43,985 nt of DNA from a virus. Positions 2,040-43,954 of the stretch are shown here, one piece after another. The stretch lies in IMG/VR virus record IMGVR_UViG_3300045988_075559; one strand, 5' to 3'. The translations under genes were made by a program, and so were the position numbers. Under the pieces are notes generated by a model, which worked only from the letters and a program-made list of their open reading frames with translations, was not told the origin of the DNA and made no database searches. How positions within the stretch are numbered: position 1 is the first letter of the stretch; the number at the start of each line of letters is the position of its first letter.

Positions 2040-2529
2040 TTCCAGCCTCCTTTAATATTTTGTCAAGCAGTTCCTGTCCGATCAGCTCTGCGTAATCCGC
2101 ACGCTGCGCCATATATCTTGCAACTGTCTTTCTTCCTTTTACTTCTCCGACTTTCTTTCCAGTTCCTGCTTTTCCTCTTCCTTTCTTGTCCTTCCGATTA
2201 TGTGTAACCATATCATGGCCAAGTTCGTACAAATGATAATGAGGAGCTGATGACGTTACGGCGATTGTCATTTTACTTCCGGAACGGATTACTCTTCCCT
2301 GCCGGAAGCTCTTGCTTAATGGCTTCTGTGTTTCTTCGTCACTGCTGTTCTTTCCCCGCCGATAATGATGCCCTTTTGCTTCAGAATTTACTCGTTTTTG
2401 TAAATCCTTAGCAATATTTTTCGCTTCTTTCTTTAAAACTTTTTCCGCAGATGCAGGATATTGTTTTGTCGCCTTCTCCATTGCCTGGATCAGTTCCGAA
2501 GCGTCAAAATCAAAGTTGATACTTGACAC
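2029..2529 (-). CDS. HK97 gp10-family head-tail protein
   Basis: GTG 2527-2529 is 9 nt after AGGAGG. The ...SSAPHYHLYELGH... pattern fits the family. The ORF-track extension to 2601 overlaps the upstream gene and lacks an SD. Confidence 0.6.
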   Translation of the reverse strand: MSSINFDFDASELIQAMEKATKQYPASAEKVLKKEAKNIAKDLQKRVNSEAKGHHYRRGKNSSDEETQKPLSKSFRQGRVIRSGSKMTIAVTSSAPHYHLYELGHDMVTHNRKDKKGRGKAGTGKKVGEVKGRKTVARYMAQRADYAELIGQELLDKILKEAGIDS

Positions 2530-2854
2530 TTTCGAACACCTCCTCACATTGGATTTCCAGCATTCTGTGCGCATTATCCATATCAAGCGGTGGGCCTGCA
2601 ATGGAAAACATGTGTCCCTGATACAAAATCCTCATATCTGCAGTAATATCTTTTCGGAAGCGGATGTACATCCTGTGTGTAACCTCCGGCTTTAATTTGC
2701 TCATGAAATTGTATTCTGATGCTTTGTATGGTTTTACAGTTGCCCATACTGTCCGATATTTTTTCCACTCGGATTTGTCCTGACCCATTTCATCTTCTGA
2801 AGTGTTCAGGCGGAGAAATGTGATCCGCCTGTTTAGTTTTCCGATATCAACCAT
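2510..2854 (-). CDS. Head closure / head-tail adaptor protein (SPP1 gp16-like)
   Basis: ATG 2852-2854 is 6 nt after GGAGG. The MVDIGKLNRRITF...WATVKP...THRMYIRFR pattern fits the family. Confidence 0.65.
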   Translation of the reverse strand: MVDIGKLNRRITFLRLNTSEDEMGQDKSEWKKYRTVWATVKPYKASEYNFMSKLKPEVTHRMYIRFRKDITADMRILYQGHMFSIAGPPLDMDNAHRMLEIQCEEVFESVKYQL

Positions 2855-3147: not shown

Positions 3148-4302
3148 TCATACTCCTGTAACAGTTGCATCTTTAATTGTCAGCTGCCCGTTCACGAACG
3201 CTTCTTCGTCTTTCACCGTGCAGTCTTCCCTTTCGATTGCCCTGAAGATTGTAAGATCTTCTTCAAATGCATTCAGTTCTCCGATCTGGGCGATGTTAGA
3301 TGTCATAAGAGTCATCTGGTTTCTATCCCAGAATTTGATACCCTCTTTCAAATCTCCGATAATAACTGGTATCTTTCTACTTCCTGCTGTCTTTGTATCG
3401 GATGGCATATCGGAGTTTGGAATAACTTTGACAGGAACAATTGTTGATCCAGCGCAAAGTCTAAGCTGCATTGGATTTGCAGGATCCGGCTGGAGAAGAT
3501 ATCTTCCTTCGTTATCCTTTAATGTATCAAGCCACTGTAACCCATCGTCGTTTGTCACAATTGCAGAAGTAGGTTTAAATGCCTGTCCAAGCGTGATATT
3601 CAATGCTTTCTTGATATCATCAAGATCTTTCATTGCTGTTACATCCTTTGTCGCAATCTGCTCAAGAATCATTTTATTTCTTGTGACTCTTGACTCATCC
3701 GCAATCCATGTTGTCAAAGCTCCCGTAATATTTGCATCTGTATCCGCAAGAAGTTCATTTGTGCAAGGAAAATATCCTGCATATTTTTCAATCTCGTATG
3801 AGATTCTTTCGAACTGCGGGGTTGTTCCAGCTGTTATCTTTCCACCTTCTCCCACTTTCGCAAACCCAGTCTGCTGCGCACGTTTCTTATAGGTTCTCTG
3901 GCCTTTGTTTGTTGTTACATTTTCTACATCAACCAGGCTGATCAGAGAGAATTTTGCGCCTCTGTATGTATTGATCTGTGTCTGGATGTCTTCCGGGACT
4001 GTATATCCTCCATCTGCAGGTGTGCCTTCTACCATAGTTGCGTTTCGGAATCCTCTTCTTGCAGCATTAGCAAATTCTTTGATAGAGTTATTTTCTAACG
4101 GTTTCGGTTCCTGTGATGGATTGGCTGTTCCATCTCCGTCTGGATCCATGATGTCTTTCAGAAGGTCAAACTGTTCCTGCATATCTTTAAGTTCTTCCTT
4201 GGCTGTTCTTGCTTCTTCCAGCTTTCCCTGCTCTACCAGGGACTGTACCATTGTTTTTTTCTCATTAATAGAGTTTAAAAGTTCTAATAATTTTTTATTC
4301 CT
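3148..4302 (-). CDS. Major capsid protein (HK97 fold type), proposed AGG start
   Basis: Capsid-like 367-aa ORF downstream of the protease. AGG 4300-4302 is 5 nt after GGAGG (4308-4312) and adds NKKLLELLNSINEKKT, a coiled-coil N-terminus. No ATG/GTG/TTG lies in frame before 4251, and that ATG lacks an SD. Confidence 0.85.
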   Translation of the reverse strand, partial: RNKKLLELLNSINEKKTMVQSLVEQGKLEEARTAKEELKDMQEQFDLLKDIMDPDGDGTANPSQEPKPLENNSIKEFANAARRGFRNATMVEGTPADGGYTVPEDIQTQINTYRGAKFSLISLVDVENVTTNKGQRTYKKRAQQTGFAKVGEGGKITAGTTPQFERISYEIEKYAGYFPCTNELLADTDANITGALTTWIADESRVTRNKMILEQIATKDVTAMKDLDDIKKALNITLGQAFKPTSAIVTNDDGLQWLDTLKDNEGRYLLQPDPANPMQLRLCAGSTIVPVKVIPNSDMPSDTKTAGSRKIPVIIGDLKEGIKFWDRNQMTLMTSNIAQIGELNAFEEDLTIFRAIEREDCTVKDEEAFVNGQLTIKDATVTGV

Positions 4303-4319: not shown

Positions 4320-4982
4320 TCAGATACCATACTGATCTAAGTCTCTTAATATTTCTTTTTTCTGCTGTTCTTTTGCTTCCTGGGCTTCTTTTTCCTGTTT
4401 TACTTTATTGCGTATTTCATCCGTCAGTCTGACTCCGCACACGCAATTAAAGAACTGCTGCCCTGAATTCTCGATCTTATCAATAAATCCAAGTTCAAGA
4501 GCCTTCTCTGCTGTGATCCATGTTTCCTTATCCATCATTTTCAGGATTTCATCTTTTGATCTTCCTGTTTTTTTTGCATACGCTTCCGAAAGCGCACTGT
4601 TCATTGTTTTCAGGATTTCTGCGTTCTTCTGCATATCATGATAATCTCCGGAAGCTCCTGACATTGAGACATTGTGGATCATTATAGTCGCAACAGGGCT
4701 CATTTTGCATGTGTTTGCCATTGCAATCACACTGGCTGCACTACCAGCAAGCGATTGAATGTTGATTTCCACGTCACTTCTTCCGGCAAGAATAGAATAG
4801 ATTTCCTGTCCTGCCATCACAGAGCCGCCGCCTGAGTTTATGTTTACCGTGAGTGTTTCTCCTGGTTGAAGAGAGGCAATTGCATTCCTGATATCATTCG
4901 GACATGTGGAATCCCAGTCCAGCCAGTCGTAAATCCATTTATCATCATTGCTGATGATATCCCCTCTTACATCAATCTCCAT
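4320..4982 (-). CDS. ClpP-family (S14) prohead maturation protease
   Basis: ATG 4980-4982 is 8 nt after GGAGG. Motifs: ...NINSGGGSVMAG...LAGSAASVIA...IMIHN. Confidence 0.85.
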   Translation of the reverse strand: MEIDVRGDIISNDDKWIYDWLDWDSTCPNDIRNAIASLQPGETLTVNINSGGGSVMAGQEIYSILAGRSDVEINIQSLAGSAASVIAMANTCKMSPVATIMIHNVSMSGASGDYHDMQKNAEILKTMNSALSEAYAKKTGRSKDEILKMMDKETWITAEKALELGFIDKIENSGQQFFNCVCGVRLTDEIRNKVKQEKEAQEAKEQQKKEILRDLDQYGI

Positions 4983-6252
4983 CTCCTTCACCTCCCTGTG
5001 TGTTAACTCCGTAAGCCGCGCCTATATGTGTTATTGGCTGATACGTTCCGTTTACCATGTTGACATCTCCTCCGTCCACGAAAGGAAGATCAAGGAGATC
5101 TCTCCCCTCATTGATCGTATAGATTCCGTTCTGCACGTATCCAGTTATTACTTCCTTCTGTGTCTTTGAATCCGTTCTCAATAATGCTTTTTCGTTGAAT
5201 TTAAAATAATATCCTTCTTTTTTCTCAGTATCAGAAAGACATTTATAGTTTATCTCCTGCTCGTACTGTGACAATCTATAGCTCATCGTGTCCACCAGGA
5301 ATGCCAACTGCTGGCTTTCAGAATTTGAATAGCTTGACTTATCATAATCGTTTAGCTGATTTGGTTTAATTCCGAATGCTGCTGCAATCTGCAATGCCGT
5401 ATATTTTTTTATCTCTGCATACTGCGCATCTGCCAGAGTTACGTTTAGTGGCTGCAGTGTCATACCAACTGGTACCGCCACCACTTTACCTGCGTTTTTA
5501 GCGCCTGAAAGTAATGCGTTGTATTCCTTTTGCAAGGCCATACGCTTTGGTTTATCAAGGTCTCCTGTATACTGCAACGCTGCCTTTGCGGTTAATCCGC
5601 TAGCATACAGCTGATTCAAGTATTTCTGTGACTCCACTGCGCCCGAAATTGAATCCTGTAAGATCTGCCTTACCGGTTTTCCCATGATTCCATTAAGTGT
5701 GCACCATGTTTTAAAGTGCATAACATTATCCTGTGAAAAAGTGTATGTCTTTCCGGTCTTAGGATCGCTGTATCGATAATACAGCCTTCCTGCGTCTCCG
5801 AACACTCCCACATCATCCATTAGCACATCCACATAATTGCTCTGCATAGGCCAGAATGAAAGAATGTTGTATTCTCCTCCATATCTTCCCTTTTTCTCGA
5901 ATTTCGTCTGTATCCATACATACGCATTTCCATAATGTTCACAATTATATTCTATCGTGCCCCAGAACGTCGCCGGAGTCATGATCTGATTTGGTCTGTT
6001 CATAAGGAGCCATGAAGCTCTCGTCGGATCTGCCCGTATTTTTCCCTTATCGGTCTGCTTATAAAATTTCAGTGGCATTTTCCCCATTGTTTCTGAAAGC
6101 ATTTTTAAGCATGTAAAATACGTTACTTCTCCAATTGCATTTCGTGGGGTTTTTGGATCAATTCCAAGCCACTCCATTAGCCTTTCATCATCTATTGATG
6201 TAGGCTCTCCAACAAGGGAATTCCACATTTCTTTAATTTTCTGTAGAATCCT
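4972..6252 (-). CDS. Portal protein (HK97 family), proposed AGG start
   Basis: Portal-like 418-aa ORF after TerL. AGG 6250-6252 is 7 nt after GAGGAG (6260-6265) and adds ILQKIKE. The ORF-track ATG 6226-6228 has no SD. Confidence 0.8.
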   Translation of the reverse strand, partial: RILQKIKEMWNSLVGEPTSIDDERLMEWLGIDPKTPRNAIGEVTYFTCLKMLSETMGKMPLKFYKQTDKGKIRADPTRASWLLMNRPNQIMTPATFWGTIEYNCEHYGNAYVWIQTKFEKKGRYGGEYNILSFWPMQSNYVDVLMDDVGVFGDAGRLYYRYSDPKTGKTYTFSQDNVMHFKTWCTLNGIMGKPVRQILQDSISGAVESQKYLNQLYASGLTAKAALQYTGDLDKPKRMALQKEYNALLSGAKNAGKVVAVPVGMTLQPLNVTLADAQYAEIKKYTALQIAAAFGIKPNQLNDYDKSSYSNSESQQLAFLVDTMSYRLSQYEQEINYKCLSDTEKKEGYYFKFNEKALLRTDSKTQKEVITGYVQNGIYTINEGRDLLDLPFVDGGDVNMVNGTYQPITHIGAAYGVNTQGGEGDGD

Positions 6253-7996
6253 TCAATATCTCCTCAATAAAATTATCAATGTAATCTCCGTAATCGTCTC
6301 CGAATGCATGAAACATTGCCAGCTTATACGCACATAGTGTTGCATCCACCGGGTCGATTCTCTTTGTTGTTGCATCTTTATCAATTTTGATCAATCCATT
6401 GTTCTGCCGGATTACCGCATTACTCATCGCATAATTCAGCAGAGGATTGTAAGTATATATAATATTTCTGCAAAATACCTGCTCTCTGAATCCCTGTGTT
6501 GCTTCGTTTAAATGTTTGTGGCTCTGAAATACTTCTTCGACATCGTATCCTTCATCTGACAGATCCATCATTAATTTACTTGCATTTGCAGGGTCAAAGC
6601 ACAGGCATTGTATTTTTAATTTCATTTTTTCGCAGGTCTCAAGAACATATCTCATAACTGCTCCCTGATCTACGATCGGAGTGTTTGTTACCTCCAGAAA
6701 TCCCATACGTTCCCACGCGTCATAGGCAACCTTGTCTTTTATAATATGTTCCTGAAGCTTCTCCCTTGTCGGGATAAAACTGTGTGACCAAAGAATATAC
6801 TTTACTATTTCTTTTCTATTCGCATCATATTCCCCGGATAAAAATGGAATCATAAACGCCACTGATGTAAGATCTGTCTTTGCGGACATATCGAAACCTA
6901 CATACACCGGATGTCCCGTTATATCAAATGGTAATTCATTCACCTGGCAGGCTTTCCATTTCGACATGTCCATATACCCATTCTCTTTCGCCTGCACCCA
7001 GACATCCAGACATTTTGTGAGGAAGGCCGTCATATGTTCTGGCTGTTCTCTGGCAATCTTATATTCACCGCGAATCTTATCGACACCTTCCGGATATGTC
7101 ATTCTAATCGGATTAGCTTTCTTCCAAGTCTCTTCGTTATCCAGATTTGAAATGTCTTCATAATCTTCCGGGTCCATCTCACAAATGTCGATTAGATATT
7201 CATCATTCTCCACGTCCGTGTTTGGATCCAACACCTTGGAACAATACTGATACTCAGTCACATAACAAGGATAAGTTAAATCCATTCCAGCTGTTGTTAT
7301 GATCATCAAGAGCGGCTCTTTTGTGTTTGATCCTATTCCTAAATCATAGAACTCCGTGGTTTTGTGCTGATGATACTCATCCAAAACCAGAAGTGCAGGG
7401 TTTGTACCATCCCCGGACTTTCCATCGTCTTTTGATAATGGTTTGATTGTGCTATTGCTTTTCAGATGTTTTATACAGTCCCTGGTTACCTTAAATTTCA
7501 TCCTCAAAGGTGATCCTTGAAGCATTAATCCGGCTTCCCCGAATACAATCTTGGACTGATCGCGTTTTGTGCCGGCGGTATAAATCTCGTATACTTCTCC
7601 GTTCTTGGTTGATGTAACTGCTGCCTCATAGAGTGCAATACCTGCCTCTTCCTGAGATTTCGCATTCTTTCTAGCCACTTCTGTGAAATATTTCTTAAAA
7701 CGTCGATATCCGGTATCTTTATGCACCCATCCGTACAGCTGGCAGATTCTAAATCTCTGCCATGGTGTTAGAATGATCGGTTGCTTTGCCAGAACTCCTT
7801 TACTATGTCGTAAGAGCGCAAACCATTCTACAATGTTCTCTGCCTGTCTTTCATTCCACACATACGGGAAATCCAATTGACCGATTCGGTCAATATCTTT
7901 CAACAATCTTTTGCAGGCCCATATGTGTTTCCTGCCGCTGATAATCTTTCCAGAGATACAATCTAATGCGTATTGTTTTAATTCATCAAGGATCAT
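6233..7996 (-). CDS. terL: Terminase large subunit
   Basis: 587 aa with ATPase and nuclease halves. The ATG overlaps the TerS stop (ATGA coupling). Confidence 0.9.
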   Translation of the reverse strand: MILDELKQYALDCISGKIISGRKHIWACKRLLKDIDRIGQLDFPYVWNERQAENIVEWFALLRHSKGVLAKQPIILTPWQRFRICQLYGWVHKDTGYRRFKKYFTEVARKNAKSQEEAGIALYEAAVTSTKNGEVYEIYTAGTKRDQSKIVFGEAGLMLQGSPLRMKFKVTRDCIKHLKSNSTIKPLSKDDGKSGDGTNPALLVLDEYHQHKTTEFYDLGIGSNTKEPLLMIITTAGMDLTYPCYVTEYQYCSKVLDPNTDVENDEYLIDICEMDPEDYEDISNLDNEETWKKANPIRMTYPEGVDKIRGEYKIAREQPEHMTAFLTKCLDVWVQAKENGYMDMSKWKACQVNELPFDITGHPVYVGFDMSAKTDLTSVAFMIPFLSGEYDANRKEIVKYILWSHSFIPTREKLQEHIIKDKVAYDAWERMGFLEVTNTPIVDQGAVMRYVLETCEKMKLKIQCLCFDPANASKLMMDLSDEGYDVEEVFQSHKHLNEATQGFREQVFCRNIIYTYNPLLNYAMSNAVIRQNNGLIKIDKDATTKRIDPVDATLCAYKLAMFHAFGDDYGDYIDNFIEEILKDSTEN

Positions 7997-8502
7997 ATTG
8001 CACCAAACCGGTTTTCAATTTCTTTCTGCTGCTTATTCACTTTTGCCGTGCCGGCTTTCAGTCTCGAATCAATTGTCAATCCACACAAGGCAGCAAAGCG
8101 TCGCATTTCTTCCGCATATCCTTTCTGAATGTCTACCATCGGATTCTTTACGACAATTACTCCGGTTCTGGTTTCTCTGTCAACATAATATGTCTGCTGA
8201 CTTAATATTTCTGTGGCTTTTACATAGTTTGCGAACGCATTACAATAGCCTCCGATATTATTCCTGTCCAGGTTTCCGACTATATTTAGTTTATCCAACT
8301 CTTTTATGATCCTGCGCCATTCTTTTTTTGCCACATCATCTATCAGCCATGTCGGAGGACGTTTGAGCTGGTTTTTCTCTGTTCTTACCTGGTCTTCTGC
8401 GTCTGCTTTCTTTTGTCCTTCTACTATTGTCAGGTGCTTTTTCTGCAAGCTGACTGGTTTCATTGGTCTTGCCCTTGTCCTCCCTCCTCTCTGGCCTGCC
8501 AA
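7993..8502 (-). CDS. terS: Terminase small subunit (P27 family)
   Basis: TTG 8500-8502 gives MAGQRGGRTRARP, the usual family N-terminus. ATG 8542-8544 is an alternative. Neither has a clear SD. Confidence 0.65.
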   Translation of the reverse strand: MAGQRGGRTRARPMKPVSLQKKHLTIVEGQKKADAEDQVRTEKNQLKRPPTWLIDDVAKKEWRRIIKELDKLNIVGNLDRNNIGGYCNAFANYVKATEILSQQTYYVDRETRTGVIVVKNPMVDIQKGYAEEMRRFAALCGLTIDSRLKAGTAKVNKQQKEIENRFGAI

Positions 8503-9001: not shown

Positions 9002-9072
9002 TAGCGGGAGACGGATTCGAACCGCCATTCCAGGCTAAGGAGGCCTGTAAGTTTCCGTTACTTTATCCCGCG
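9002..9072 (-). tRNA. Initiator-like tRNA with anticodon CCU (decodes AGG)
   Basis: 71-nt cloverleaf with acceptor CGCGGGA/UCCCGCU and C1 opposite U72. D stem AAGU/ACUU (A11:U24); anticodon arm CAGGC-CUCCUUA-GCCUG; T arm GGCGG-UUCGAAU-CCGUC; A73. No encoded CCA. Confidence 0.75.
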
Positions 9073-9079
9073 GTAATTA

Positions 9080-9153
9080 TGGACATTCTGAGATTTGAAC
9101 TCAGGACCGTCCGGTTATGAGCCGGATGCTCTGACCAGCTGAGCTAAATGTCC
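9080..9153 (-). tRNA. tRNA with anticodon CAU, elongator type (Met or Ile2)
   Basis: 74-nt canonical cloverleaf: GGACAUU/AAUGUCC (G1:C72 paired), D arm GCUC-AGCUGGUCA-GAGC, anticodon arm UCCGG-CUCAUAA-CCGGA, T arm CUGAG-UUCAAAU-CUCAG. Confidence 0.85.
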
Positions 9154-31737: not shown

Positions 31738-32478
31738 TTAAAATTTTAATCTGTATTTCAATCGGCTTCTTTTTCTGCTAAAACGCACCTTATCTACGGT
31801 TGGATCAGAATACATTTTGAGTCTGCCCTTTACAACCTTAAAGGCGGCAAAATGGACGTTTCCGGTTTCGCCTTTAAGTTCAGTTTCTTTCTGGTGGACA
31901 TAATTATCAATGTCTTTCTTTCCCTCTTCTACTCTGCCGGGAATAGATGCTGCAACTTTCTGTGCTTCTCCGGCATAGTATTTCGCATTGTCTTCTTTTT
32001 GCTCCGGATAATCTCCTCTTCCGTGTGCCCAGGCCTCTGCCTGGTCTCTGGCTTTTTCTGACCGGTCGGCTGCCTGATTGACTGCCTCGACCGTCTCTCT
32101 GAAAATCTCCGGTTCTTCCGGCGATCCGGGAACCTCCGGTTTTGGTCTTGCTTTTATTGGTATGGTTATTTTATGTTCTGTATTTCCAGAATTATTTTCA
32201 CTCAGGTATATGAATGCGTATATTTTGTAATTTTGGTCGATTTCTTCGTTCTCCAGCATGGAATCCGGAATTGGCACATCTGTTACAGAATCTTTCGTTG
32301 TTCCTATTCTTGTTACAGATGTTCCGCCTGTTTCTTCCAATGAGAAATGTATCTCAATAGCCGGCCGTAGAGTAAGTCCCTGAATTCTTAAAATTTGTCC
32401 ATAATCCCACTGCCACGCTGTTTCGGCCCGAATATTTGTTTCTGCTTCTGAAAAAACAGCAGTGATTATATTATTCCT
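31738..32478 (-). CDS. Fibre-module virion protein (family not recognised), proposed AGG start
   Basis: The frame is open for 46 codons upstream of the ORF-track TTG (32340, no SD). AGG 32476-32478 is 6 nt after GGAGG (32485-32489) and overlaps the rSAM 3' end. Confidence 0.6.
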   Translation of the reverse strand, partial: RNNIITAVFSEAETNIRAETAWQWDYGQILRIQGLTLRPAIEIHFSLEETGGTSVTRIGTTKDSVTDVPIPDSMLENEEIDQNYKIYAFIYLSENNSGNTEHKITIPIKARPKPEVPGSPEEPEIFRETVEAVNQAADRSEKARDQAEAWAHGRGDYPEQKEDNAKYYAGEAQKVAASIPGRVEEGKKDIDNYVHQKETELKGETGNVHFAAFKVVKGRLKMYSDPTVDKVRFSRKRSRLKYRLKF

Positions 32479-33796
32479 CTTCTGCCTCCTTCTTTAGCAA
32501 ATTCCATTCTTTTTCCGTGATAATATCCAATGCCCATTCTTTCGGGATGTATAGTTTCATTCTTTTATTGATTTTATTTTTTCTGTAATATCTGTTCCAG
32601 AAATAGGCATTCGCCAGTGCTCTTGCTTTGTGCATAATGCAAATATATGTCGCCCTGGCGTCCGGTGTTCCGAAAATCTGGTAATTGTATGCAGTGCACC
32701 AGCTGCAGCCTTCTGCGATAGGACAGTTAAAGCACTCGTCTGTGCTCTGTGTTCTCCTGTCAATTTTTTTCAAGCGCTCTACGCGGCATCTGTCGCATTC
32801 CGTCTGACAGATTCCATAATCTACATCTCCGATTGAATAAGGTTCCTGTTGATTTCCCAGAGAGCTTTCCATGTAGCGCAAACACGGATATATAATGCCT
32901 GCCGGATCTACGGCCAGCATCACTCCGTTTCCGCCACACCAATTCTCCAGATCGTCCTCCTGTTTCGGATGGAAGAACTCCTCTTCAAACAGCGAACAAA
33001 AATAATCATTTTCGAAGTCCATGTTGTTTTCCAAAATGTAGTCTGCGAGACGCTTCATTTCGTTATATAGTACGGTGGCGTGAATTGGTTTCCATCCATC
33101 CTCGTATACGCAGTTCGCATTTATTTCGCAATATCCCAGCTCAAACATATGGACGATCGCATCGTATGTATGCATGACATTGGCCGGCGCGATAGTGATC
33201 TTTGAACCCATGTAATTTCCTTTGTCCATCCAATCTTTCGCCGCAGATACTGCCAAGTCATACGAAGGGCTTCCATCTGAGAATATGCGGCAGGAATCAT
33301 GCAGTTCTTGATTCCCGTCAACTGTGACTGAGAAAGACAATCTGTTCTTCCATTTATCAAGTACTCTTCCGACTTCCGGATCATGATATAGTGTTCCGTT
33401 TGAGCATATAGAAAACATCGTTTTATCAAGCCACGGGTGATTAAGTTCTATCATTCTGTCAATTGCGTATGAGCATATCTGGTCTATTAATTTCGCTTCT
33501 AACAATGGCTCACCGCCAATGAAATCAATGATCAATCCCGGAGATTTATGGGGGTTGATATATTCTTTCATCCCTTTTTCTCCGGTTAACAATAAATCTA
33601 TCATTTTCTCAGCCGTTTCAAGGCTCATTTTGCGTTTTCCTTTTTTGATCTGGTAGCAGTATGTGCACGCCAGATTACAATCATCGGTGACCTGAAATGT
33701 CACTGTCTGTGTTAAAATTTTTTCTTTTTCATTTGCCTGATGAAGTTCCGGATATAATCGGCTTAATTGTTCTGTGTACTGCTCAGTTCTTTTCAT
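32471..33796 (-). CDS. Radical SAM / SPASM-domain peptide maturase (CXXX-repeat-target type)
   Basis: ATG 33794-33796 is 8 nt after GAAGG. CNLACTYC (CX3CX2C), GGEPLL, and C-terminal Cys clusters (CGGNG...YPC, CFNCPIAEGCSWC). Confidence 0.85.
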   Translation of the reverse strand: MKRTEQYTEQLSRLYPELHQANEKEKILTQTVTFQVTDDCNLACTYCYQIKKGKRKMSLETAEKMIDLLLTGEKGMKEYINPHKSPGLIIDFIGGEPLLEAKLIDQICSYAIDRMIELNHPWLDKTMFSICSNGTLYHDPEVGRVLDKWKNRLSFSVTVDGNQELHDSCRIFSDGSPSYDLAVSAAKDWMDKGNYMGSKITIAPANVMHTYDAIVHMFELGYCEINANCVYEDGWKPIHATVLYNEMKRLADYILENNMDFENDYFCSLFEEEFFHPKQEDDLENWCGGNGVMLAVDPAGIIYPCLRYMESSLGNQQEPYSIGDVDYGICQTECDRCRVERLKKIDRRTQSTDECFNCPIAEGCSWCTAYNYQIFGTPDARATYICIMHKARALANAYFWNRYYRKNKINKRMKLYIPKEWALDIITEKEWNLLKKEAEEE

Positions 33797-34124
33797 TTTC
33801 AATACCTTCGATTTCACAATTGCACATTATGTTGATCTCAAGTTTCGTCGAATTGTTTGGAAGCATCCAATTATATTTATGTTTCTTTATTGCTCCCGGT
33901 ATATACAACTTTTCAATTTCCTGAACTGCCAGTTTGTACTCCGCTTCCAGTTCTACTCCTTTTTTTTGATATGCTTTGAATGCATCAGAATTAATAATAT
34001 CCGGATCGTTCGGATGTGATTCAATAATTCTCTGGATAACATCTTTTGCAAATCCCAGTTCAAAGTTTAATCTTTCAATGTATTCTGCCTTTTCTCGTTC
34101 GATTTCTACAATTATCTTTCTCAT
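33783..34124 (-). CDS. Small helical protein, candidate rSAM accessory partner (113 aa)
   Basis: ATG 34122-34124 is 5 nt after AAGGGAG. It overlaps the rSAM start by 14 nt. Confidence 0.55.
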   Translation of the reverse strand: MRKIIVEIEREKAEYIERLNFELGFAKDVIQRIIESHPNDPDIINSDAFKAYQKKGVELEAEYKLAVQEIEKLYIPGAIKKHKYNWMLPNNSTKLEINIMCNCEIEGIENEKN

Positions 34125-34482: not shown

Positions 34483-35142
34483 TCATTTTACCGCAGATGA
34501 AACCTGCCCATAGCATGTATCTTTGCATGTATTTCCGCAATTAGTAGAACAATTTGACGAGCATGAAGTACTGCATCCTCCGCAAATCGTAGAACAGCTA
34601 TTTGAACACGATTCCGCGCATCCTCCCATGCATGAAGATGTACATTCGGATCCGCATGAACTTCCGCATGAGCTGCATCCAGAACAGCCAGTGCATGATG
34701 TCGAACACGATGCTGTGCATCTATTGTCGCATCCAGTACAGTATCCTGAACATGTCCCAGAGCATCCAGAGCAATCGTATGAACAACTGTACCCGCATCC
34801 AGTACATCCATTTTTGCAGCCGCCCGAACAGTCATCTGCGCATGTTGCAAAGCAATTGCCTCCGCATGCATTTGTGCAGTCTGCGCAAGTCTGCGCACAA
34901 TTTGTCGTGCAGGTCTGGAAGCAATCCGTTTTGCAGCCACCCGAACAGTCATCTGCACATGTTGCCTGACAACCCGTACATTCATCCTCACATGCTCTGT
35001 TGCATAGCCTATCACAATTCCCACTGCATCCAGTTTTACAGCTGGTTGAGCATGCGGTTCCGCATGAGCTTCCGCAATTTCCTTTCGTCGTATTTTGACA
35101 ACTTGTCGCGCACTGAGTTCCGCAACTAGATGTACAAGCCCT
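34483..35142 (-). CDS. CXXX-repeat Cys-rich protein (219 codons, 54 Cys), proposed AGG start
   Basis: Absent from the ORF track. This 660-nt open frame, (AGG)ACTSSCGTQCATSCQN...CKDTCYGQVSSAVK, has no N-terminal ATG/GTG/TTG. AGG 35140-35142 is 8 nt after AGGAGG (35151-35156). Stop is TGA 34483-34485. Confidence 0.7.
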   Translation of the reverse strand, partial: RACTSSCGTQCATSCQNTTKGNCGSSCGTACSTSCKTGCSGNCDRLCNRACEDECTGCQATCADDCSGGCKTDCFQTCTTNCAQTCADCTNACGGNCFATCADDCSGGCKNGCTGCGYSCSYDCSGCSGTCSGYCTGCDNRCTASCSTSCTGCSGCSSCGSSCGSECTSSCMGGCAESCSNSCSTICGGCSTSCSSNCSTNCGNTCKDTCYGQVSSAVK

Positions 35143-35163
35143 TTTGTTTTCCTCCTTTTAATT

Positions 35164-35691
35164 TTAAGCTTTTATTGATGTAGTGCATCCCGCGCCGCAT
35201 GTATGTGTGCAGCCGCTCGAACAGCCGCCTGTGCAGCCGCCACAGCCGCCTGAACAGCCATCTGAGCACTGTTTTCCACATGTAGTGCTACAGTTTCCAG
35301 AGCACGAAGCGCACCCCATACAGGCAGATGCACAGGCCAGTTCGCATAGACCTGTGCAATTCCCCCTACACCCCGATACCTTTGCATCTTTCTGTATGTT
35401 CAGCATTTTGTCTGCGAAATTTTCCGCTCTTTCCAAAGTCATTTCAAGAGCAGTTCTTTCTTTTCTCAGACTGTTATCTTGCAGGAAATCATTGATTTCC
35501 AGAAGTGGATCAATAATCTTTTGAATGTGCTCATCTGAAACCTGTTTTCCATTCTGCGGCATGAAATCAAAATCATATTCCTGCGATGCATATTTCTTCA
35601 GTGAACCTCCCATTTGTTCTGCTGTTCTGCTCATCATTGTTTTTTTTACTTTTTCTTTGATCCGTTTCAAAGATTCAGCTGTTATAATCCT
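35164..35691 (-). CDS. Protein with helical N-domain and C-terminal CXXX-repeat tail (17 Cys), proposed AGG start
   Basis: AGG 35689-35691 is 7 nt after AGGAG (35699-35703). The ORF-track TTG 35670 lacks an SD. C-terminus: CRGNCTGLCELACASACMGCASCSGNCSTTCGKQCSDGCSGGCGGCTGGCSSGCTHTCGAGC. Confidence 0.7.
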   Translation of the reverse strand, partial: RIITAESLKRIKEKVKKTMMSRTAEQMGGSLKKYASQEYDFDFMPQNGKQVSDEHIQKIIDPLLEINDFLQDNSLRKERTALEMTLERAENFADKMLNIQKDAKVSGCRGNCTGLCELACASACMGCASCSGNCSTTCGKQCSDGCSGGCGGCTGGCSSGCTHTCGAGCTTSIKA

Positions 35692-35701
35692 TATTCTTCT
35701 C

Positions 35702-36268
35702 CTATACTGCTGACACTGACGTGTAAGCCGGGTTCACGAGCATATAGTCAATTGTTACTATTTCCATTATTGTCGTCTTCATGATCGACGCTTCAATGTA
35801 CATTTTCGTACCTTTTTTTACTTCTCCGAAATCTACAATAGTTCCCAAAATCTTATATTTATTATTTTCGTCAAACATACTTGGCGAAATGCGGATTTCT
35901 TTAATGATCTCTCCGGTATATGATCCTTTTCTGATTTTTACAGATATAACAGAATCTGTTTTTGATATATCTGAAACCTTCATTCGAATCATGACTGAAT
36001 ATGTCCCTATTTTCAGTGCAAGGTTTTTCGAAAACAGTGGCGTCTCGGATATAGCACTTGTACTTTTACTCAGAGCAAGATACTCCGCATCTTCATCGTT
36101 AATCGTAGCTTCTGCAGAAAGGTTTGTTCCTCCAACATAAATTCCACCGGCATTCTCTACTTTCGCAAGTGTTTCATCAACCTTGTCCATCATATCTGCG
36201 AAATCTTTTACGTTGAAGAAGTCATCATCCTCCGGCTTCGGAAATCCATAATTAATTGTTTTTTGCAA
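35702..36268 (-). CDS. Tail fibre-associated protein
   Basis: TTG is 6 nt after AGGAGG. The N-terminal ...YGFPKPEDDDFFNVKDFADMMDKVD... resembles a tail-fibre N-terminal motif. Confidence 0.5.
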   Translation of the reverse strand: MQKTINYGFPKPEDDDFFNVKDFADMMDKVDETLAKVENAGGIYVGGTNLSAEATINDEDAEYLALSKSTSAISETPLFSKNLALKIGTYSVMIRMKVSDISKTDSVISVKIRKGSYTGEIIKEIRISPSMFDENNKYKILGTIVDFGEVKKGTKMYIEASIMKTTIMEIVTIDYMLVNPAYTSVSAV

Positions 36269-37864: not shown

Positions 37865-38258
37865 TCACCTCCCCGTCTCCAAGCTCTGTTATCAATCGAA
37901 ATGAAACCGTTACTTTTCCTTCATCTTTTGTACACGTAAAATTTTCAATTCCCGTTATGTACGGATTTTCTGTCAGGCACTCCTCTGTCATCCGTTCCAG
38001 TTCGGAATCTGTCAGTTCTTTTGAGTAGCTTTTTCCGATAAGTTCTTCATATTCCTGTCCATAGTCCTCTGAATAAATATAGTATCTATATCTTGGCGTT
38101 TTTAATGCCAGCCATACCCACACAAGAAGTGCATCGTATCCTTCCACTATCTTTCCGGAAAGCTGGCCGGTTTCAAAATTGATTCCATATTCCCGTGGAA
38201 TATATAAATTTTCTTCTTTCTCATCATCTTCTTCGTTGTCCACGAACGGAAACATCAT
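37851..38258 (-). CDS. XkdS-like (DUF2634-type) baseplate protein
   Basis: ATGA-coupled start. Segment ...WLALKTPRYRYYIYSEDYGQEYEELIG.... Confidence 0.55.
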   Translation of the reverse strand: MMFPFVDNEEDDEKEENLYIPREYGINFETGQLSGKIVEGYDALLVWVWLALKTPRYRYYIYSEDYGQEYEELIGKSYSKELTDSELERMTEECLTENPYITGIENFTCTKDEGKVTVSFRLITELGDGEVNAEV

Positions 38259-38578
38259 TCTGGCACCACCACCTTTGCTATCACCACATATTTTTCATGT
38301 TTATTAAGTTTTATAAGAAGGACTCTGTCTCCTTCCTGTAGAATATTTTTCTTGTATTCTTCCAGTGTTGCATTATGTGAAGAATCCGTCATATATTCTG
38401 CTGATTGTGGCTTCGAATTATGTATGAATATTTTTTTCTTATTGTCCAATCTTAGATTACAATTTATTAGATAATCATTTTTGTCCAGCGTCATGGTATC
38501 TATTTTAATCTTTCCCGCATCCATCATAATTCCCAGTTGAGGCGGCTGAGCATTGTAATATCGCCCAGCTCTTCTCAT
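38255..38578 (-). CDS. XkdR-like (DUF2577-type) baseplate protein
   Basis: C-terminal ...EGDRVLLIKLNKHEKYVVIAKVV pattern. The start is uncertain. Confidence 0.5.
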   Translation of the reverse strand: MRRAGRYYNAQPPQLGIMMDAGKIKIDTMTLDKNDYLINCNLRLDNKKKIFIHNSKPQSAEYMTDSSHNATLEEYKKNILQEGDRVLLIKLNKHEKYVVIAKVVVPE

Positions 38579-38604
38579 TTGCTCTACGTAACGTTCGTAT
38601 ATGT

Positions 38605-40536
38605 TTATAGACCTTTGTATCTTCCTCCGTTAACAGCTGCTGTCACTTTCTTTCCCTTCCATTGGCTTACATTAAGCAATGCTCCGGAATTTGAGTAATC
38701 ACTTCCACCCATGCTCTCAAATTCTATGATTGACCATCCAGACGATGGATAATCCTGCCAATGTCCGTATGCGCTTCCATTTTTATCTCCCGCGTTCTTT
38801 TCGTCCGCGACAAGGCAGTTTAACTTTATTCCTCCTTCCAGAGTAAAGCTCACAAGGTCTCCGCAGGATCCGAAGTATTCCCCAACTGCAACAAGATAAT
38901 ACCCATCTATTGTCGCAATTCCGTGATCGCTTGCCCGTCCTTTAGCATTCCACACATTCGCGACTCTTCTTTGCATAGAGTCTCCATTCCACCTGCTGTA
39001 CCAATATGGATATATTGTGTAATCCCATGGGCATATCCCAGATTGCTGCAGTCCTGCTGGTATTGGTTTCGATGTCCCGGATATTGTTGTGTCATTTCCT
39101 GTCGAAGCCGTCGTAGTAGGATAATCTATATAGCAAAATCCAAGGACTGTGCTGCAGGATGGACCGTTACTTCTTTTTACGGTATCGCTCAGATTGCCTT
39201 CTATGGAAACCCAGTTGTTTCCGGACATACTTTCGATGATTCCAATGTGTCCAGATCCTCCGTAGATAACCAGTGCTCCAAGTCGTGGCGAACTTCCAAA
39301 CTTTCCCCTATCCTTATACCAGTCCATGACATTAAAACAATATGCTTCTTTTCCTCCTCCCATGAAGAGATCGCCGTGTCCTGTTTTATTGAATATGGCC
39401 CAAATGAACATACAGCACCATGCCGCATCCCACCCATAATAGGTCGTTATTTCATTATGATTGCTTCCTGGCGGGTTCTCGCCCACTCCAATCCAGGCTC
39501 TTGCCTGATTTAGCACATCCTCTAATGCGTTACTTGTCCCTGATCCGAAAGAACCTTCCGATGTTTCCTGTTCTTCATCCTCTTCCTGGATGTCCATAAT
39601 ATTTTTAAAAGCCAGTTCCAGTTTTGTGGTGTATAAACCGCCACTCCATTCATGGCTGTCATTTTCTATCCAAAACTTTCCCTTGAGGCCGGTTCTGGAA
39701 TCTTCTATGATCACTCCTAATCCGGAGATGCATCTGCAGTCTCCTATCATTGTCAGGCTTGATGTTTTATCAATCCCATGAAGTTCTGTCTTCGCTTCTG
39801 CTTTTCCATTCCCCGAATCTACAGATATAGAATTTTGAAAGATTCCGAATTTATCAGCCCACTTTGAATTACTTATGCTTCCTATCTTTCTATTATCCGA
39901 ATTGTATATGTACACTCGGTTTACCATGCTGTCAATGTTTTCAGAATAAGAGGATTCTACAATTCTTTCCCCCTGGCAAATGTGGAAATTGGGGATAACT
40001 TTTCCTTTTTGTATAACCTCCAATTTATCTCTGTTCATCTGGGCTATATATGGCTTTTTATTCTTCCTGTACGCTTTTGTATATGCAGCCATGATGATTT
40101 CATAATACGATCTTTCCTGGAAGAATATTTTTGGAATGTTTATTTTGGTTTTAGCCAGGTCTCCCGTTTTTACTTTTACATCCTTGCATACCAAGGATGT
40201 AATCTTTTCAGGCGTCTTGTTTGCAAATTTGTAGGTTCCCGACGATCTGAGTAAATGAATCATTCCGTCCTGTGCGGTATACGAAAGTTCCCCTGCCTCT
40301 GATTTTCTTTCCCTGCATGTTACCATCCCAATGAATTTTGTCTTTTTATCATCCGGATATCCTGGGTAAAATGTTATTTTATCTCCCAGTTTAATTCCCA
40401 GGTTCTTTACGTTTTTGTCATTTGGGCTATATGCAACATTAAATACTACTGATCTGGCCGCTTGTTTTGCGCTTCCCGACCAGCTTACCGATGTAACGTA
40501 CCCAGTTATATTCGTATCTTTCCAATTCAGTTTCAT
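38605..40536 (-). CDS. XkdQ-like baseplate hub protein fused to CHAP peptidase and a further C-terminal lytic-like domain (tail lysin)
   Basis: ATG 40534-40536 overlaps the upstream TGA. CHAP signature ...DAAWCCMFIWAIF...GHIGII...EGN. Confidence 0.65.
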   Translation of the reverse strand: MKLNWKDTNITGYVTSVSWSGSAKQAARSVVFNVAYSPNDKNVKNLGIKLGDKITFYPGYPDDKKTKFIGMVTCRERKSEAGELSYTAQDGMIHLLRSSGTYKFANKTPEKITSLVCKDVKVKTGDLAKTKINIPKIFFQERSYYEIIMAAYTKAYRKNKKPYIAQMNRDKLEVIQKGKVIPNFHICQGERIVESSYSENIDSMVNRVYIYNSDNRKIGSISNSKWADKFGIFQNSISVDSGNGKAEAKTELHGIDKTSSLTMIGDCRCISGLGVIIEDSRTGLKGKFWIENDSHEWSGGLYTTKLELAFKNIMDIQEEDEEQETSEGSFGSGTSNALEDVLNQARAWIGVGENPPGSNHNEITTYYGWDAAWCCMFIWAIFNKTGHGDLFMGGGKEAYCFNVMDWYKDRGKFGSSPRLGALVIYGGSGHIGIIESMSGNNWVSIEGNLSDTVKRSNGPSCSTVLGFCYIDYPTTTASTGNDTTISGTSKPIPAGLQQSGICPWDYTIYPYWYSRWNGDSMQRRVANVWNAKGRASDHGIATIDGYYLVAVGEYFGSCGDLVSFTLEGGIKLNCLVADEKNAGDKNGSAYGHWQDYPSSGWSIIEFESMGGSDYSNSGALLNVSQWKGKKVTAAVNGGRYKGL

Positions 40537-41230: not shown

Positions 41231-43396
41231 CTACGCTGTTTGTGGCATGTTGTCACTTGCCTCTTCGATTTTCCTTACAATCGCTTCTGCTATTTTATCA
41301 ATATCAGAATCATCTCGCACTACGATACTGTCTGCAAGCTTCGCAATTTTGACTATAAAGTTCTTCTTTGCCTCCTGGCGTGCCTTCTGTACAGATTCGT
41401 CGTGTGGATACACTCTGCTTCCAGATGGAAGATCTACAATCTCTCCACCTTTTTCACTGATCTGTACGATACCTCCCTGCCAGTTATCTGTGCCTTTCGC
41501 AAGAGTTGGGATTTGTGGTATGTTAAGGCCCTCCCAGCCTTTTCCTCCTATTCCGGGTACCCACTCAGGAACTGTAAAATGAATTGAATTAATCTTGCTG
41601 ATCGCTCCATTGACGATTGATATCACAGCATTAATTGGAACTTTTACCATATCAGCCAGTCCTGAGAATGCAGTTCCTACAAACTCCTTGCATCCATTCC
41701 ATACAGATTCCCAGTCTGTTTTAAACACACCGTTCAAAAAGGAGATAATTCCTTCGAACATAGTGAGTAACGCATCAATGGCAACTCCAATCGTATCAAA
41801 TGTTCCGACGATAAATTCTCCGGCGAAATTAAAGATTTCTTCGACTACCGGTCCGAATGTCTCTTTCAGGTATGATGCTATTTTTTCCACAAATTCTATG
41901 AACGGTTCTAATTGCGGTTTTACTGTCTGCCAGAATTCCACAAATCTATCTCCTATCTTCTGCAAAATAGGTGCGATTCTGTCCCAGTTTTTATAGATCA
42001 GCAGAGCCGCTGCTGCCACTGCTGCTGCCGCAATTCCAAATGGTCCTGTCATTATCTTCGCAATTCCCGAGAATCCTGAAGCACCCGTCAGTTTTGTAAT
42101 CGCACCACCTATTTTTCCAAAATTTGAGATTACTGTTCCGATTCCGGAGGACACTTTCCCGAACCCAAGTAAAACAGGTCCTACTGATGCCGCTACTGCT
42201 GCAAATTTGACTATCGTCTTCTGAGTTGCCGGTCCTAATTTATTCCATTTGTCCGTAAATTTCTGTATGGCATTAATCCCTTTTGTAACATACGGAATCA
42301 ACTGGTTCCCAATTGGTTGCAGCACATCTACCTGTATCGTTCTCCAAAGTCCTCCCAGAGCGCCTGATAATGTATCGTATTTTACATTTACCAGTTCTTC
42401 GACAGACTCCTTGCTTTTATCTATTGCATCACTCGCCGTCGACATAGAGGTTATAACCTGAGGTCCCAAATCTTCCCACATGGTTCCGAATAGGTTTACT
42501 CCAGCTGCACTCTGTGCTACCGGATCATCCATGGAAGCAAGTCCTTCTATGACTTCGTTGAATGCTTCTTTTGCAGTTTTCCCTCCAGCTCCAAACTTTT
42601 GTGCCATTTCGTCTGCATTCATCCCGAGAGCCTCGAATCCCTGTTTCGTCGTGTCTGATCCATCTATCGCTCTGATTGAGAATTCTTTTACCGCATCTCC
42701 GATCTTATCCAGATTGAAAGCTCCGTTCTGTGCACCGTTTGCGAATACAGAAAACATATCCTCTGCATCCAGTCCCAGCTTCTTGAACTGTACGGAGTAT
42801 TCGTCAATGTTGTCGAAGAGTTCATCTGAGAAATTCAATCCTGATTGCATGCCCTGAGTCATGAGATTGAATGCTTCTCTTGCTGATACCCCATAGTGCT
42901 TTATAAGTGCGTCGGCTGCTCTTGTGCTTTCTGCTACATCTACGTCAAACGTATCTGACAGCGTATATGCGTATTCCGTGCATCTCTGCAGGGCAGAATC
43001 GTCCAGATAGGACATATTCTGGTTGACAGTTGCCATTGCTTCCGCAACATCATTGATGGACTCACCAAAATTATCTTTATAGACATTGTTGATCATGTCT
43101 TTATATTTGCCCATCTCATCTGTTGCGGTACCTGTTGCCGCCGCAAACTGCTGAAATGCGTCCTGTGAATCAGAGGAAAATTTAATTGCTGCAGTTCCGA
43201 CTGCTGCCAGTGGTGCAGTGACCGACTTGGTCAATGTTTCTCCGGCAGATGTAAATGCATCTCCGGCATGAGAGAACACATCAGCAACATTGTTAAAACG
43301 TTTTTCCAGGTCACGAGCCTGGGCCGCCACCTGTTTTGATGGATCGCTGAAATCATCTATTAACTTAACAACTGCTGCAACCGTCTTACCTGCCCT
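41231..43396 (-). CDS. Tape measure protein, proposed AGG start
   Basis: AGG 43394-43396 is 10 nt after GAGGAG (43407-43412) and adds AGKTVAAVVKLIDDFSDPSKQ before the ORF-track GTG (43330, no SD). Helical and Gly/Ala-rich hydrophobic segments. Confidence 0.8.
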   Translation of the reverse strand, partial: RAGKTVAAVVKLIDDFSDPSKQVAAQARDLEKRFNNVADVFSHAGDAFTSAGETLTKSVTAPLAAVGTAAIKFSSDSQDAFQQFAAATGTATDEMGKYKDMINNVYKDNFGESINDVAEAMATVNQNMSYLDDSALQRCTEYAYTLSDTFDVDVAESTRAADALIKHYGVSAREAFNLMTQGMQSGLNFSDELFDNIDEYSVQFKKLGLDAEDMFSVFANGAQNGAFNLDKIGDAVKEFSIRAIDGSDTTKQGFEALGMNADEMAQKFGAGGKTAKEAFNEVIEGLASMDDPVAQSAAGVNLFGTMWEDLGPQVITSMSTASDAIDKSKESVEELVNVKYDTLSGALGGLWRTIQVDVLQPIGNQLIPYVTKGINAIQKFTDKWNKLGPATQKTIVKFAAVAASVGPVLLGFGKVSSGIGTVISNFGKIGGAITKLTGASGFSGIAKIMTGPFGIAAAAVAAAALLIYKNWDRIAPILQKIGDRFVEFWQTVKPQLEPFIEFVEKIASYLKETFGPVVEEIFNFAGEFIVGTFDTIGVAIDALLTMFEGIISFLNGVFKTDWESVWNGCKEFVGTAFSGLADMVKVPINAVISIVNGAISKINSIHFTVPEWVPGIGGKGWEGLNIPQIPTLAKGTDNWQGGIVQISEKGGEIVDLPSGSRVYPHDESVQKARQEAKKNFIVKIAKLADSIVVRDDSDIDKIAEAIVRKIEEASDNMPQTA

Positions 43397-43562
43397 TGTT
43401 TTTCATCTCCTCTTTTAAGTCTTGCATTTCCTGTTTCAAAAAAGCGCGGGTGATTAATCGTTCACCCGCGCCCATATTGTAATATTTCGATGGCTTCCAT
43501 TTTTTCAGGCGGAACAATGCGTAAGCAACGCTTGCTTCGCTGTCCACCTTTATAAGTTTTTT
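43386..43562 (-). CDS. -1 frameshift extension of the tail assembly chaperone
   Basis: After the A-AAA-AAC slip the -1 frame stays open for 56 codons (LIKVDSEASVAYALFRLKKWKPSKYYNMG...KNKGR), ending at TAA 43386-88. Confidence 0.7.
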   Translation of the reverse strand, partial: KKLIKVDSEASVAYALFRLKKWKPSKYYNMGAGERLITRAFLKQEMQDLKEEMKNKGR

Positions 43563-43954
43563 ACTTCTTCTTCAGCGTCTTCTCCAAGTCCTGAGAGCTT
43601 TACGATTTCTGATGCAATGCTTCCAGTTTCCATTCCGAACAGAATCGCCGCAAGATCCTTTGGCGTAGAAGCCCCAAAATGTTCCATCAATTTCTGATCA
43701 GTCAGACATGGATCCACGACACCGTATACACAGCACATTAAATTAAAATCATATGTGGCATTCATGTCACGGTTTCCCTTTTTGTCATACAGCATGGCCT
43801 GAAGGGTGTTGTATCTTTTTCCTGATAATTCTCTAATCGTAATCTCTGCGTCTTCGCCTACCAGTTTGGCCAGCTTCTTTGATTTAATTTTTTTTGTCTC
43901 TTTCTCTGTGGCTTTTGCTTTATCTACGCTGAGTAACTTTTCAATTAAATTCCT
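43550..43954 (-). CDS. Tail assembly chaperone (XkdN-like), proposed AGG start
   Basis: Open frame of 52 codons upstream of the ORF-track ATG (43795) with no ATG/GTG/TTG. AGG 43952-43954 (= 66-68 in the left repeat copy) is 7 nt after GGAGG (43962-43966). Confidence 0.7.
   Translation of the reverse strand, partial: RNLIEKLLSVDKAKATEKETKKIKSKKLAKLVGEDAEITIRELSGKRYNTLQAMLYDKKGNRDMNATYDFNLMCCVYGVVDPCLTDQKLMEHFGASTPKDLAAILFGMETGSIASEIVKLSGLGEDAEEEVKNL
43556..43562 (-). promoter_or_regulatory. Slippery heptamer A AAA AAC
   Basis: It is in the zero frame (GT)A AAA AAC, two codons before the chaperone stop. Confidence 0.7.

Follow-up and report, generated by a model that had tools for sequence, protein, structure and literature searches.

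We analysed the complete 43,985-nucleotide (nt) stretch of the IMG/VR virus record IMGVR_UViG_3300045988_075559, hereafter the window, and focused on two neighbouring genes for proteins with CXXX repeats, which we call A and B, and on the codon at which their translation begins. All features of the window that are given below as a range lie on its minus strand. Gene A (35164..35691) comprises 175 codons when counted from an AGG codon at 35689..35691 and encodes a helical N-terminal domain followed by 17 cysteines in CXXX spacing in the C-terminal third. The AGG is preceded at a distance of 7 nt by the Shine-Dalgarno (SD) sequence AGGAG (35699..35703), which, read from 35703 to 35699, overlaps the TAG of the gene upstream. 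The TTG at 35670, taken as the start of gene A by an open reading frame (ORF) finder, has no SD sequence. Gene B (34483..35142; 660 nt, 219 codons, 54 cysteines) has no canonical start codon. Its frame is open throughout from an AGG at 35140..35142 (read 35142-35140) to the TGA at 34485-34483, and the first ATG, GTG or TTG within it is the ATG at 34629, which is codon 172 from the AGG and codon 177 from the stop in the ORF listing. The 5' region of gene B reads TAA (35160-35158) AAG GAG GAA AAC AAA AGG GCT TGT ACA TCT AGT TGC, with the SD sequence AAGGAGG at 35151..35157, whose AGGAGG core (35156-35151) lies 8 nt 5' of the AGG. None of the six codons 5' of the first cysteine codon of gene B is ATT, ATC, ATA or CTG. 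An earlier note, made from the letters of this sequence, had proposed that both genes start at AGG; its description of gene B, its spacing of both SD sequences and its remark on the TTG agree with what we find at these coordinates, and its placing of the only in-frame ATG at about codon 178 was close.

A search with the gene A protein retrieved 35 relatives (one gene A cluster comprises 586 member sequences), the close ones being called from an internal ATG as proteins of 157 residues; a search for distant DNA similarity to the locus among GenBank phages gave no match. The more distant homologues are 175–178 residues long and begin with M-(I)ITAE.L..LK.KVK, which corresponds to window residues ahead of the TTG, and their starts fall at the AGG or at the next codon. 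The start regions were then read from the DNA of the relatives. In the 32 close ones (90–100% amino-acid identity), gene A has an SD sequence, a gap of 5–8 nt and AGG ATY ATA ACA, with the AGG kept in all 32, and gene B reads TAA AAG GAG GAA NNN RAA AGG GCT TGY ACA, where the AGG is invariant in 32/32 and the two codons just 5' of it vary. In relative L002 (67% identity), an ATG stands exactly at the AGG position in both genes. The same holds for gene B in the sister clade L034-L062 (~52–56% identity), which reads GAGGAGGTGATATCT ATG GCG TGT, with the ATG aligned to the AGG in 28 loci; together with L002, these loci place the AGG of the window at the methionine of the shared N-terminus M-A-C-[ST]. 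For gene A, the ATG of the sister clade aligns to the codon following the AGG.

There is clear evidence that gene B is coding. Its 32 alleles share the same length of 660 nt, their variable sites are distributed 19/16/110 over the three codon positions, 95 variable codons are synonymous only as compared with 29 that change the amino acid, and 54 of 54 cysteines are invariant. This bears out the judgement of the earlier note that the frame was unlikely to be non-coding, and the frames of these alleles are intact. In gene A the corresponding distribution is 24/17/80, again with invariant cysteine codons. As the note had also stated, gene B is invisible to finders that rely on ATG, GTG or TTG: in relative L001 the gene caller missed it and reported a wrong-frame shadow ORF (5644-6141) instead. 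The window holds the matching shadow ORF at 34488-35024 (178 amino acids, GTG start), in another frame of gene B. Protein databases are therefore probably without gene B for the AGG clade, with the shadow ORF reported in its place.

Two further observations concern the junction of the two genes. On the minus strand, gene A ends with ACA TCA ATA AAA GCT TAA AAT TAA, followed by the leader of gene B, and the TAA AAT TAA (35158..35166) combines the gene A stop with a second in-frame stop. This is a 6-nt insertion of the window only, as a single TAA is found in 32/32 close relatives. Many relatives (L001 at 5477-5500 and the equivalent positions of L006-L031) carry an out-of-frame ATG inside the gene B leader, in the form of GGAGGA ATG CGA AAG GGC (a 7-codon ORF) or GGAGGA ATG TAA (a start-stop), where the window has AAC AAA and no ATG. 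We considered this ATG (GGAGGAATGCGAAAGG or ATGTAA) as a hidden start of gene B and rejected it, as it is 1 nt from the SD sequence, out of frame and absent in the window; it may be a small regulatory upstream ORF or mere noise.

The use of AGG extends far beyond genes A and B, which the earlier note had not seen. We scanned the window for any codon 4–10 nt after an SD sequence from which a frame runs on for 100 codons or more and which has no canonical start before it in that frame. AGG was the commonest such codon, with 11 sites as compared with 7 for ATG, and all others were codons adjoining those sites. Credible AGG starts are found in 9 late genes, and 3 further ones (1606, 8475 and 38614) are ambiguous, so the total is 9–12. 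The tail assembly chaperone (43550..43954; AGG at 43952-43954) matches Phage_TAC_5 from residue 5, with its first ATG at residue 54. The tail tube protein (80..514; AGG at 514) matches Pfam DUF2001 over residues 6-139 (profile positions 5-138 of 139), with its first ATG at residue 24. For both proteins, the Pfam match means that residues upstream of the first ATG are needed. In the major capsid gene (3148..4302; AGG at 4302) the SD sequence GGAGG is located 5 nt upstream of the AGG, which is kept in an allele of 82% identity, and the first ATG, 17 codons downstream, has no SD sequence. The portal gene (4972..6252; AGG at 6252) keeps its AGG across alleles that are 85% identical, and an ATG 8 codons downstream again has no SD sequence. 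The tape measure gene (41231..43396; AGG at 43396) has SD plus AGG in all relatives and its first canonical codon 22 codons downstream, and in a fibre-like gene 3' of the maturase gene described further below (31738..32478; AGG at 32478) the first canonical codon follows only after 46 codons. The AGG of an HK97 gp10-like tail component (2029..2619; AGG at 2619) is aligned to an ATG in the diverged alleles L079 and L095.

The ambiguous sites belong to the tail sheath gene (527..1606), in which AGG is the probable start, with the SD sequence GGAGGT 9 nt before it in two alleles of 80% identity and an ATG 5 codons downstream; to the small terminase gene (TerS, 7993..8475), with an ATG 4 codons downstream in the window that is lacking in L110, L117 and L119; and to a gene for a DUF2577 protein (38255..38614), with an ATG 12 codons downstream. 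Two other AGG codons were rejected as starts: the one at 17523 is part of the SD sequence of an ATG, and the one at 4997 precedes a protease gene that starts at the ATG at 4982.

ATG and AGG also replace one another at the same position between close genomes. The chaperone gene starts with ATG in most close relatives and with AGG in the window and L024; the fibre-like gene has ATG in L033 and AGG in L009, with identical sequence thereafter; and the protease ATG at 4982 of the window is an AGG in L075. AGG starts are located only within the block from TerS to the fibre-like gene, and early genes as well as the endolysin gene use ATG. Within genes, AGG is rare: the late ones have 4.7 per 1000 codons, the early ones 6.3. 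At the internal frequency of the late genes, at least 9 AGG codons among 29 late-gene starts would have a binomial P of ~1e-14. No in-frame stops were found within genes, and no stop codon is reassigned. We regard it as almost certain that these phages genuinely start translation at AGG codons, in the window phage at those of genes A and B and of about ten other structural genes.

The window encodes a tRNA with the anticodon CCU at 9002..9072 (71 nt; detected by ARAGORN, Infernal score 48.8 bits), which, together with a tRNA(CAU) at 9080..9153 (ARAGORN), lies immediately upstream of the HNH, TerS, TerL and portal genes. The body of tRNA(CCU) has C1xU72, G2-G6:C67-C71, A73, A11:U24, G29:C41 and G30:C40. 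Pair 1:72 is the only non-standard one according to Infernal, and the acceptor stem CGCGGG/CCCGC is that of an initiator. In E. coli, G2:C71, C3:G70, G4:C69 and A73 are determinants for the formyltransferase. Bacterial initiators have a purine 11:pyrimidine 24 pair in the D stem, which elongators reverse. The annotated initiator metY of E. coli shares with tRNA(CCU) the bases C1 G2 C3 G4 G5 G6/C67-C71, the unpaired 1:72, A73, A11:U24, G12:C23, G29:C41 and G30:C40. Three other tRNAs, namely E. coli argW, the neighbouring tRNA(CAU) and the tRNA-Arg(CCU) of phage L130, have a paired 1:72 and a pyrimidine 11:purine 24 (U11:A24 in argW, C11:G24 in the other two). Overall, tRNA(CCU) is 79% identical to an initiator-type tRNA(CAU) of phage L144, with which it also has C31:G39 in common, 65% to metY and 56% to argW; a BLAST search of E. 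coli genomes and phages with tRNA(CCU) was uninformative. According to previous work, a mismatch 1:72 at the acceptor end is both a formyltransferase determinant and an EF-Tu antideterminant, G:C pairs of the anticodon stem specify P-site binding (PMC2268962), and three consecutive G:C pairs at 29:41, 30:40 and 31:39 mark initiator tRNAs (PMC2268962, PMC3643588).

With a generic pattern of this design, the tRNA was found in 54 viral contigs and in the assemblies of 4 bacteria (Blautia aquisgranensis CLA-JM-H16, an uncultured Blautia metagenome-assembled genome (MAG), a Lachnospiraceae MAG and Ruminococcus sp. AF41-9), always with the anticodon CCU. Among its 12 sequence variants, 6 pairs show compensatory changes, 94.8% of cells are paired, and C1xU72 as well as A11:U24 are present in 12/12; G2:C71, C3:G70, G4:C69 and A73 are invariant, as in metY. 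An anticodon-free search with the acceptor stem CGCGGG...CCCGC, U72 and A73 returned 79 viral contigs, 54 with CCU and 25 with CAU. Because none of the 54 viral contigs and none of the 4 bacterial genomes has CAU in place of CCU as its anticodon, tRNA(CCU) is not a tRNA-fMet; judging by its sequence, we class it as an initiator-derived tRNA that probably works like an initiator. The simplest history would be an initiator tRNA with a single anticodon change, A35 to C (CAU to CCU), mirroring the change from ATG to AGG at the start codons.

Several observations concern the surroundings and kin of this tRNA. The 25 contigs with CAU (L129-L153) carry an initiator-type tRNA(CAU) with C1xU72 and not the textbook C1xA72; that of L138 is nearly a canonical bacterial initiator except for U72, and several of these tRNAs belong to large tRNA arrays of phages in which there is also a second tRNA-Met, of the elongator type. 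The neighbouring tRNA(CAU) of the window is of the elongator type (G1:C72, C11:G24) and could be an elongator tRNA-Met or a lysidine-modified tRNA-Ile2. It is located 7 nt upstream of tRNA(CCU) and accompanies it in most phages, being absent in L121, L126 and L127. Directly upstream of the tRNA pair there is an 11-bp hairpin (GGAGCCATCTG...CAGGTGGCTCC; 9161-9193) that lacks a T-run and is present in some relatives, and which might act in processing or regulation where the late transcript begins. A small cysteine-rich ORF with an ATG start always lies 3' of tRNA(CCU) (window 8579-8980; also in L109, L121, L125, L127 and L128). It begins with MIYKRCGRCG in the window and with MLKSCKYCGKIHDSKYDCG in a second phage group, introduced below, and by its sequence looks like an HNH endonuclease; a Pfam scan of the window copy gave no hit.

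To understand whether the tRNA and the AGG starts go together, we compared genomes with and without them. In the AGG clade, tRNA(CCU) is present on 25/25 contigs that are long enough to reach it (24.9 kb or more), and the six that lack it measure 7–23 kb. In the ATG clade, it is present on 0/29 contigs, of which 18 have a length of 36 kb or more. The SD-preceded, frame-opening codons of 31 AGG-clade loci were AGG in 168 cases, ATG in 124, TTG in 31 and GTG in 2, compared with 3, 168, 24 and 25, respectively, in 29 ATG-clade loci (Fisher P ~1e-43, with the qualification that the loci are related and the sampling is not independent). In view of this kinship, a second phage group (L109, L121, L125, L127 and L128) is a stronger test. 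It has the same tRNA-HNH arrangement, and its terminase, portal, protease and capsid proteins show no similarity to those of the window phage or ~23% identity. Here too, orthologous genes alternate between the two codons: TerS starts with AGG in L121 and L127 and with ATG in L109, L125 and L128, TerL with AGG in L127, and the portal gene with AGG in L109, L125 and L127 and with ATG in L128; AGG starts are also found at the protease and capsid genes. Both groups are phages of Blautia/Lachnospiraceae, and the window phage is temperate.

Taking together the AGG codons at start positions, the coding selection on the frames behind them, the initiator body of tRNA(CCU) and the co-occurrence of tRNA and AGG starts, we consider it probable that the phage tRNA(CCU) is an initiator that reads the AGG starts. 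The earlier note had hinted at a role for this tRNA, without having seen its initiator body, and the comparative data support the hint. Reasoning from the rules that apply in E. coli, we would expect tRNA(CCU) to be transcribed at the beginning of the gene block for packaging and structure (tRNA, HNH, TerS, TerL, portal and so on) and to be charged. In E. coli, the identity elements of ArgRS are C35, U36 and A20, and because tRNA(CCU) has C35 and U36, arginine is the probable amino acid. The 1:72 mismatch would keep the charged tRNA off EF-Tu and make it a substrate of the formyltransferase and IF2, and in the P site of SD-positioned 30S subunits it would pair perfectly with AGG. Virion proteins made in this way would start with (formyl-)arginine and not with methionine. 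The principle has precedents, given that initiator tRNAs with mutated anticodons start translation at the matching non-AUG codons (PMC2268962, PMC11744186).

A number of findings weigh against an initiator role for tRNA(CCU) or against individual AGG starts. The three-G:C feature of the anticodon stem is incomplete: G29:C41 is present in all 12 variants and G30:C40 in 11/12, with A30:U40 in the L109/L125 lineage, and pair 31:39 is C:G in 6 variants and U.G in 6, never G:C. Nucleotide 37 is U (CUCCUUA) in the window (position 9036) and in seven other variants, and A (CUCCUAA) in the remaining four; whatever the tRNA, a pyrimidine at this position is unusual. All variants have the ArgRS elements C35 and U36, but at position 20, where the element is A, 7 of them carry A and 5 carry U. 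In E. coli, initiator tRNAs that carry basic amino acids are poor substrates of the formyltransferase, so that initiation with formyl-arginine is not assured. Some phages with tRNA(CCU) have few AGG starts (L125 has one in the examined stretch), and at the AGG sites 1606, 8475 and 38614 the ATG 4–12 codons downstream might be used. The genomes compared are mostly close relatives, and the counts drawn from them are thus not independent; the real replication consists of two unrelated phage groups. Finally, gene A alone could start at the ATT/ATC that follows its AGG, an alternative that the earlier note had not seen. As a general explanation we rejected ATT/ATC, since it is not applicable to gene B or most other AGG genes.

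Three other explanations were weighed against an initiator function of tRNA(CCU). The strongest of them, which we nevertheless judge unlikely, is that host fMet-tRNA reads AGG weakly through a mismatch at the second position and that tRNA(CCU) is an elongator tRNA-Arg for a rare codon. tRNA-Arg genes are frequent in phages, the 3GC motif of tRNA(CCU) is imperfect, the ATG/AGG polymorphism by itself is silent on which tRNA reads AGG, and many non-canonical codons initiate detectably in E. coli (10.1101/063800). At codons outside the seven canonical or near-cognate starts, however, the native initiator reaches ~0.01–1% of the AUG level in E. coli (10.1101/063800), which is too little for capsid, sheath and tube proteins, and in the window phage the capsid, sheath, tube and portal would depend on AGG. 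An elongator would also leave the conserved 1:72 mismatch, the initiator acceptor stem and A11:U24 unaccounted for, which set tRNA(CCU) apart from the elongator tRNA-Arg(CCU) of E. coli or L130, and every other viral tRNA with the same acceptor design carries CAU. Codon compensation was rejected as the reason for the tRNA, as internal AGG is rare and, accounting for 36/297 internal arginine codons in late genes, not enriched there relative to early genes. Moreover, sister phages without tRNA(CCU) have essentially no AGG starts.

A second explanation, which we regard as very improbable, dispenses with AGG initiation altogether: gene A would start from the ATT at 35688 or the TTG at 35670, and gene B would be expressed by read-through of the gene A stop or by start-independent reinitiation. 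The two genes do share one reading frame in every relative, sister clades included, the ATG of gene A falls on the codon after the AGG in some relatives, and reinitiation can occur at non-AUG codons, even though it still requires an initiator tRNA that matches the codon (PMC2268962). A fusion of A and B by read-through was rejected, given the two stops in the window, the TAA TGA or TGA TGA that separates the genes in sister clades, and the fact that gene B has an invariant AAGGAGG to itself, 8 nt from an AGG that is aligned exactly to the ATG of relatives. Furthermore, neither the ATG/AGG swaps nor the use of AGG to start the chaperone, capsid, tube and portal genes would be explained. Lastly, the idea that the AGGs are inactivating mutations in pseudogenes or a decaying prophage, or assembly or sequencing artefacts, draws on the single base that separates ATG from AGG and on the metagenomic type of the data, and is practically negligible in view of the same AGGs in over 30 assemblies made independently from different samples, the intact frames with strong third-position bias and invariant cysteines, the essential virion genes affected and the recurrence of the pattern in an unrelated phage group.

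Returning to tRNA(CCU) as an initiator for AGG, we compared it with known systems. From the bacterial initiator tRNA it differs by CCU in place of CAU, U72 in place of A72, C:G or U.G in place of G:C at 31:39, short D and variable loops, and a presumed charge of arginine instead of methionine. Engineered initiators with mutated anticodons (amber CUA and others) follow the same principle of initiation at the complementary non-AUG codon, and their amino acid follows the identity of the new anticodon (PMC2268962, PMC11744186, 10.1101/2024.07.29.605542). These are laboratory constructs, whereas the tRNA of the window is natural, phage-encoded, conserved with compensatory changes and paired with a dozen recoded starts in essential genes. 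Phages that recode stop codons with suppressor tRNAs (PMC11210395, PMC10879173) are alike in that a phage tRNA alters codon reading, that late or structural genes are concerned and that gene callers fail; here, a sense codon would gain the meaning of a start, and the tRNA would be an initiator instead of an elongator suppressor. Regulatory non-canonical starts such as the AUU of infC and the GTC of Streptomyces sigR (PMC5472188) likewise are real starts outside ATG, GTG and TTG. In those cases, weak pairing with tRNA-fMet and discrimination by IF3 keep expression low, whereas the phages would use a cognate tRNA for highly expressed structural genes. In our literature searches, neither a natural initiator tRNA with an anticodon other than CAU nor an AGG start-codon system in phages turned up. 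On sequence grounds, the phages would thus represent a natural code deviation of a new kind, foreshadowed by the laboratory constructs.

If correct, this would be a natural case in which a sense codon receives the meaning of a start from a dedicated non-methionine initiator tRNA encoded by a virus, something known so far only from laboratory constructions. Start-codon recoding would then join the known stop-codon recodings of phages, and the pair of tRNA and codon could serve synthetic biology as a ready orthogonal initiator/start-codon pair. It would also raise the question of why phages uncouple the initiation of late genes from the host initiator tRNA. That phages with unrelated structural genes have the tRNA(CCU)-HNH cassette in common suggests that the cassette is mobile. 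More speculatively, it might constitute a mobile 'private initiation channel', in which arginine on AGG starts the late genes independently of host tRNA-fMet, a possibility that we put forward tentatively. Such a channel could sustain virion synthesis when host initiation is shut down or when toxins or defence systems attack the initiator tRNA, and in a prophage, translation of the structural genes could be prevented until the late transcript, with the tRNA on it, is produced. It would also mean that the set of start codons has been widened in nature, for the first time, by a dedicated initiator tRNA that does not carry methionine. For annotation, the consequence is that, in a common group of human-gut phages, a third of the structural genes are shortened or put in the wrong frame by gene callers.

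Genes A and B themselves appear to be ordinary targets of an adjacent maturase in a tail/baseplate module, and this system as such is known. They lie between baseplate genes (Baseplate_J, Mu gp48-like) and the fibre-like gene, and are followed by two small ORFs and then by the gene for a radical SAM/SPASM peptide maturase of the CXXX-repeat target family (32471..33817; TIGR04115, 576.8 bits versus a cut-off of 350). Pfam and NCBIfam profile searches of genes A and B gave no hit beyond one sub-threshold match of gene B to TIGR04117 (19.6 bits, cut-off 50); PF27846 is recorded for the gene A relatives P0006, P0007, P0027 and P0029. A literature search on CXXX repeats and radical SAM retrieved no paper from the collection searched. 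The locus resembles the known CXXX-repeat/radical SAM system (TIGR04115 with PF27846 targets) in having the maturase beside two tandem C-x-x-x repeat proteins, and differs in the start codon and in a gene B that is absent or mis-framed in gene calls. The start of the maturase gene is ambiguous: the ORF listing gives a GTG at 33817 (448 amino acids), the protein was called with 441 amino acids in L001, and the SD-based start at the ATG 33628 would cut into the TIGR04115 match, which begins at residue 36.

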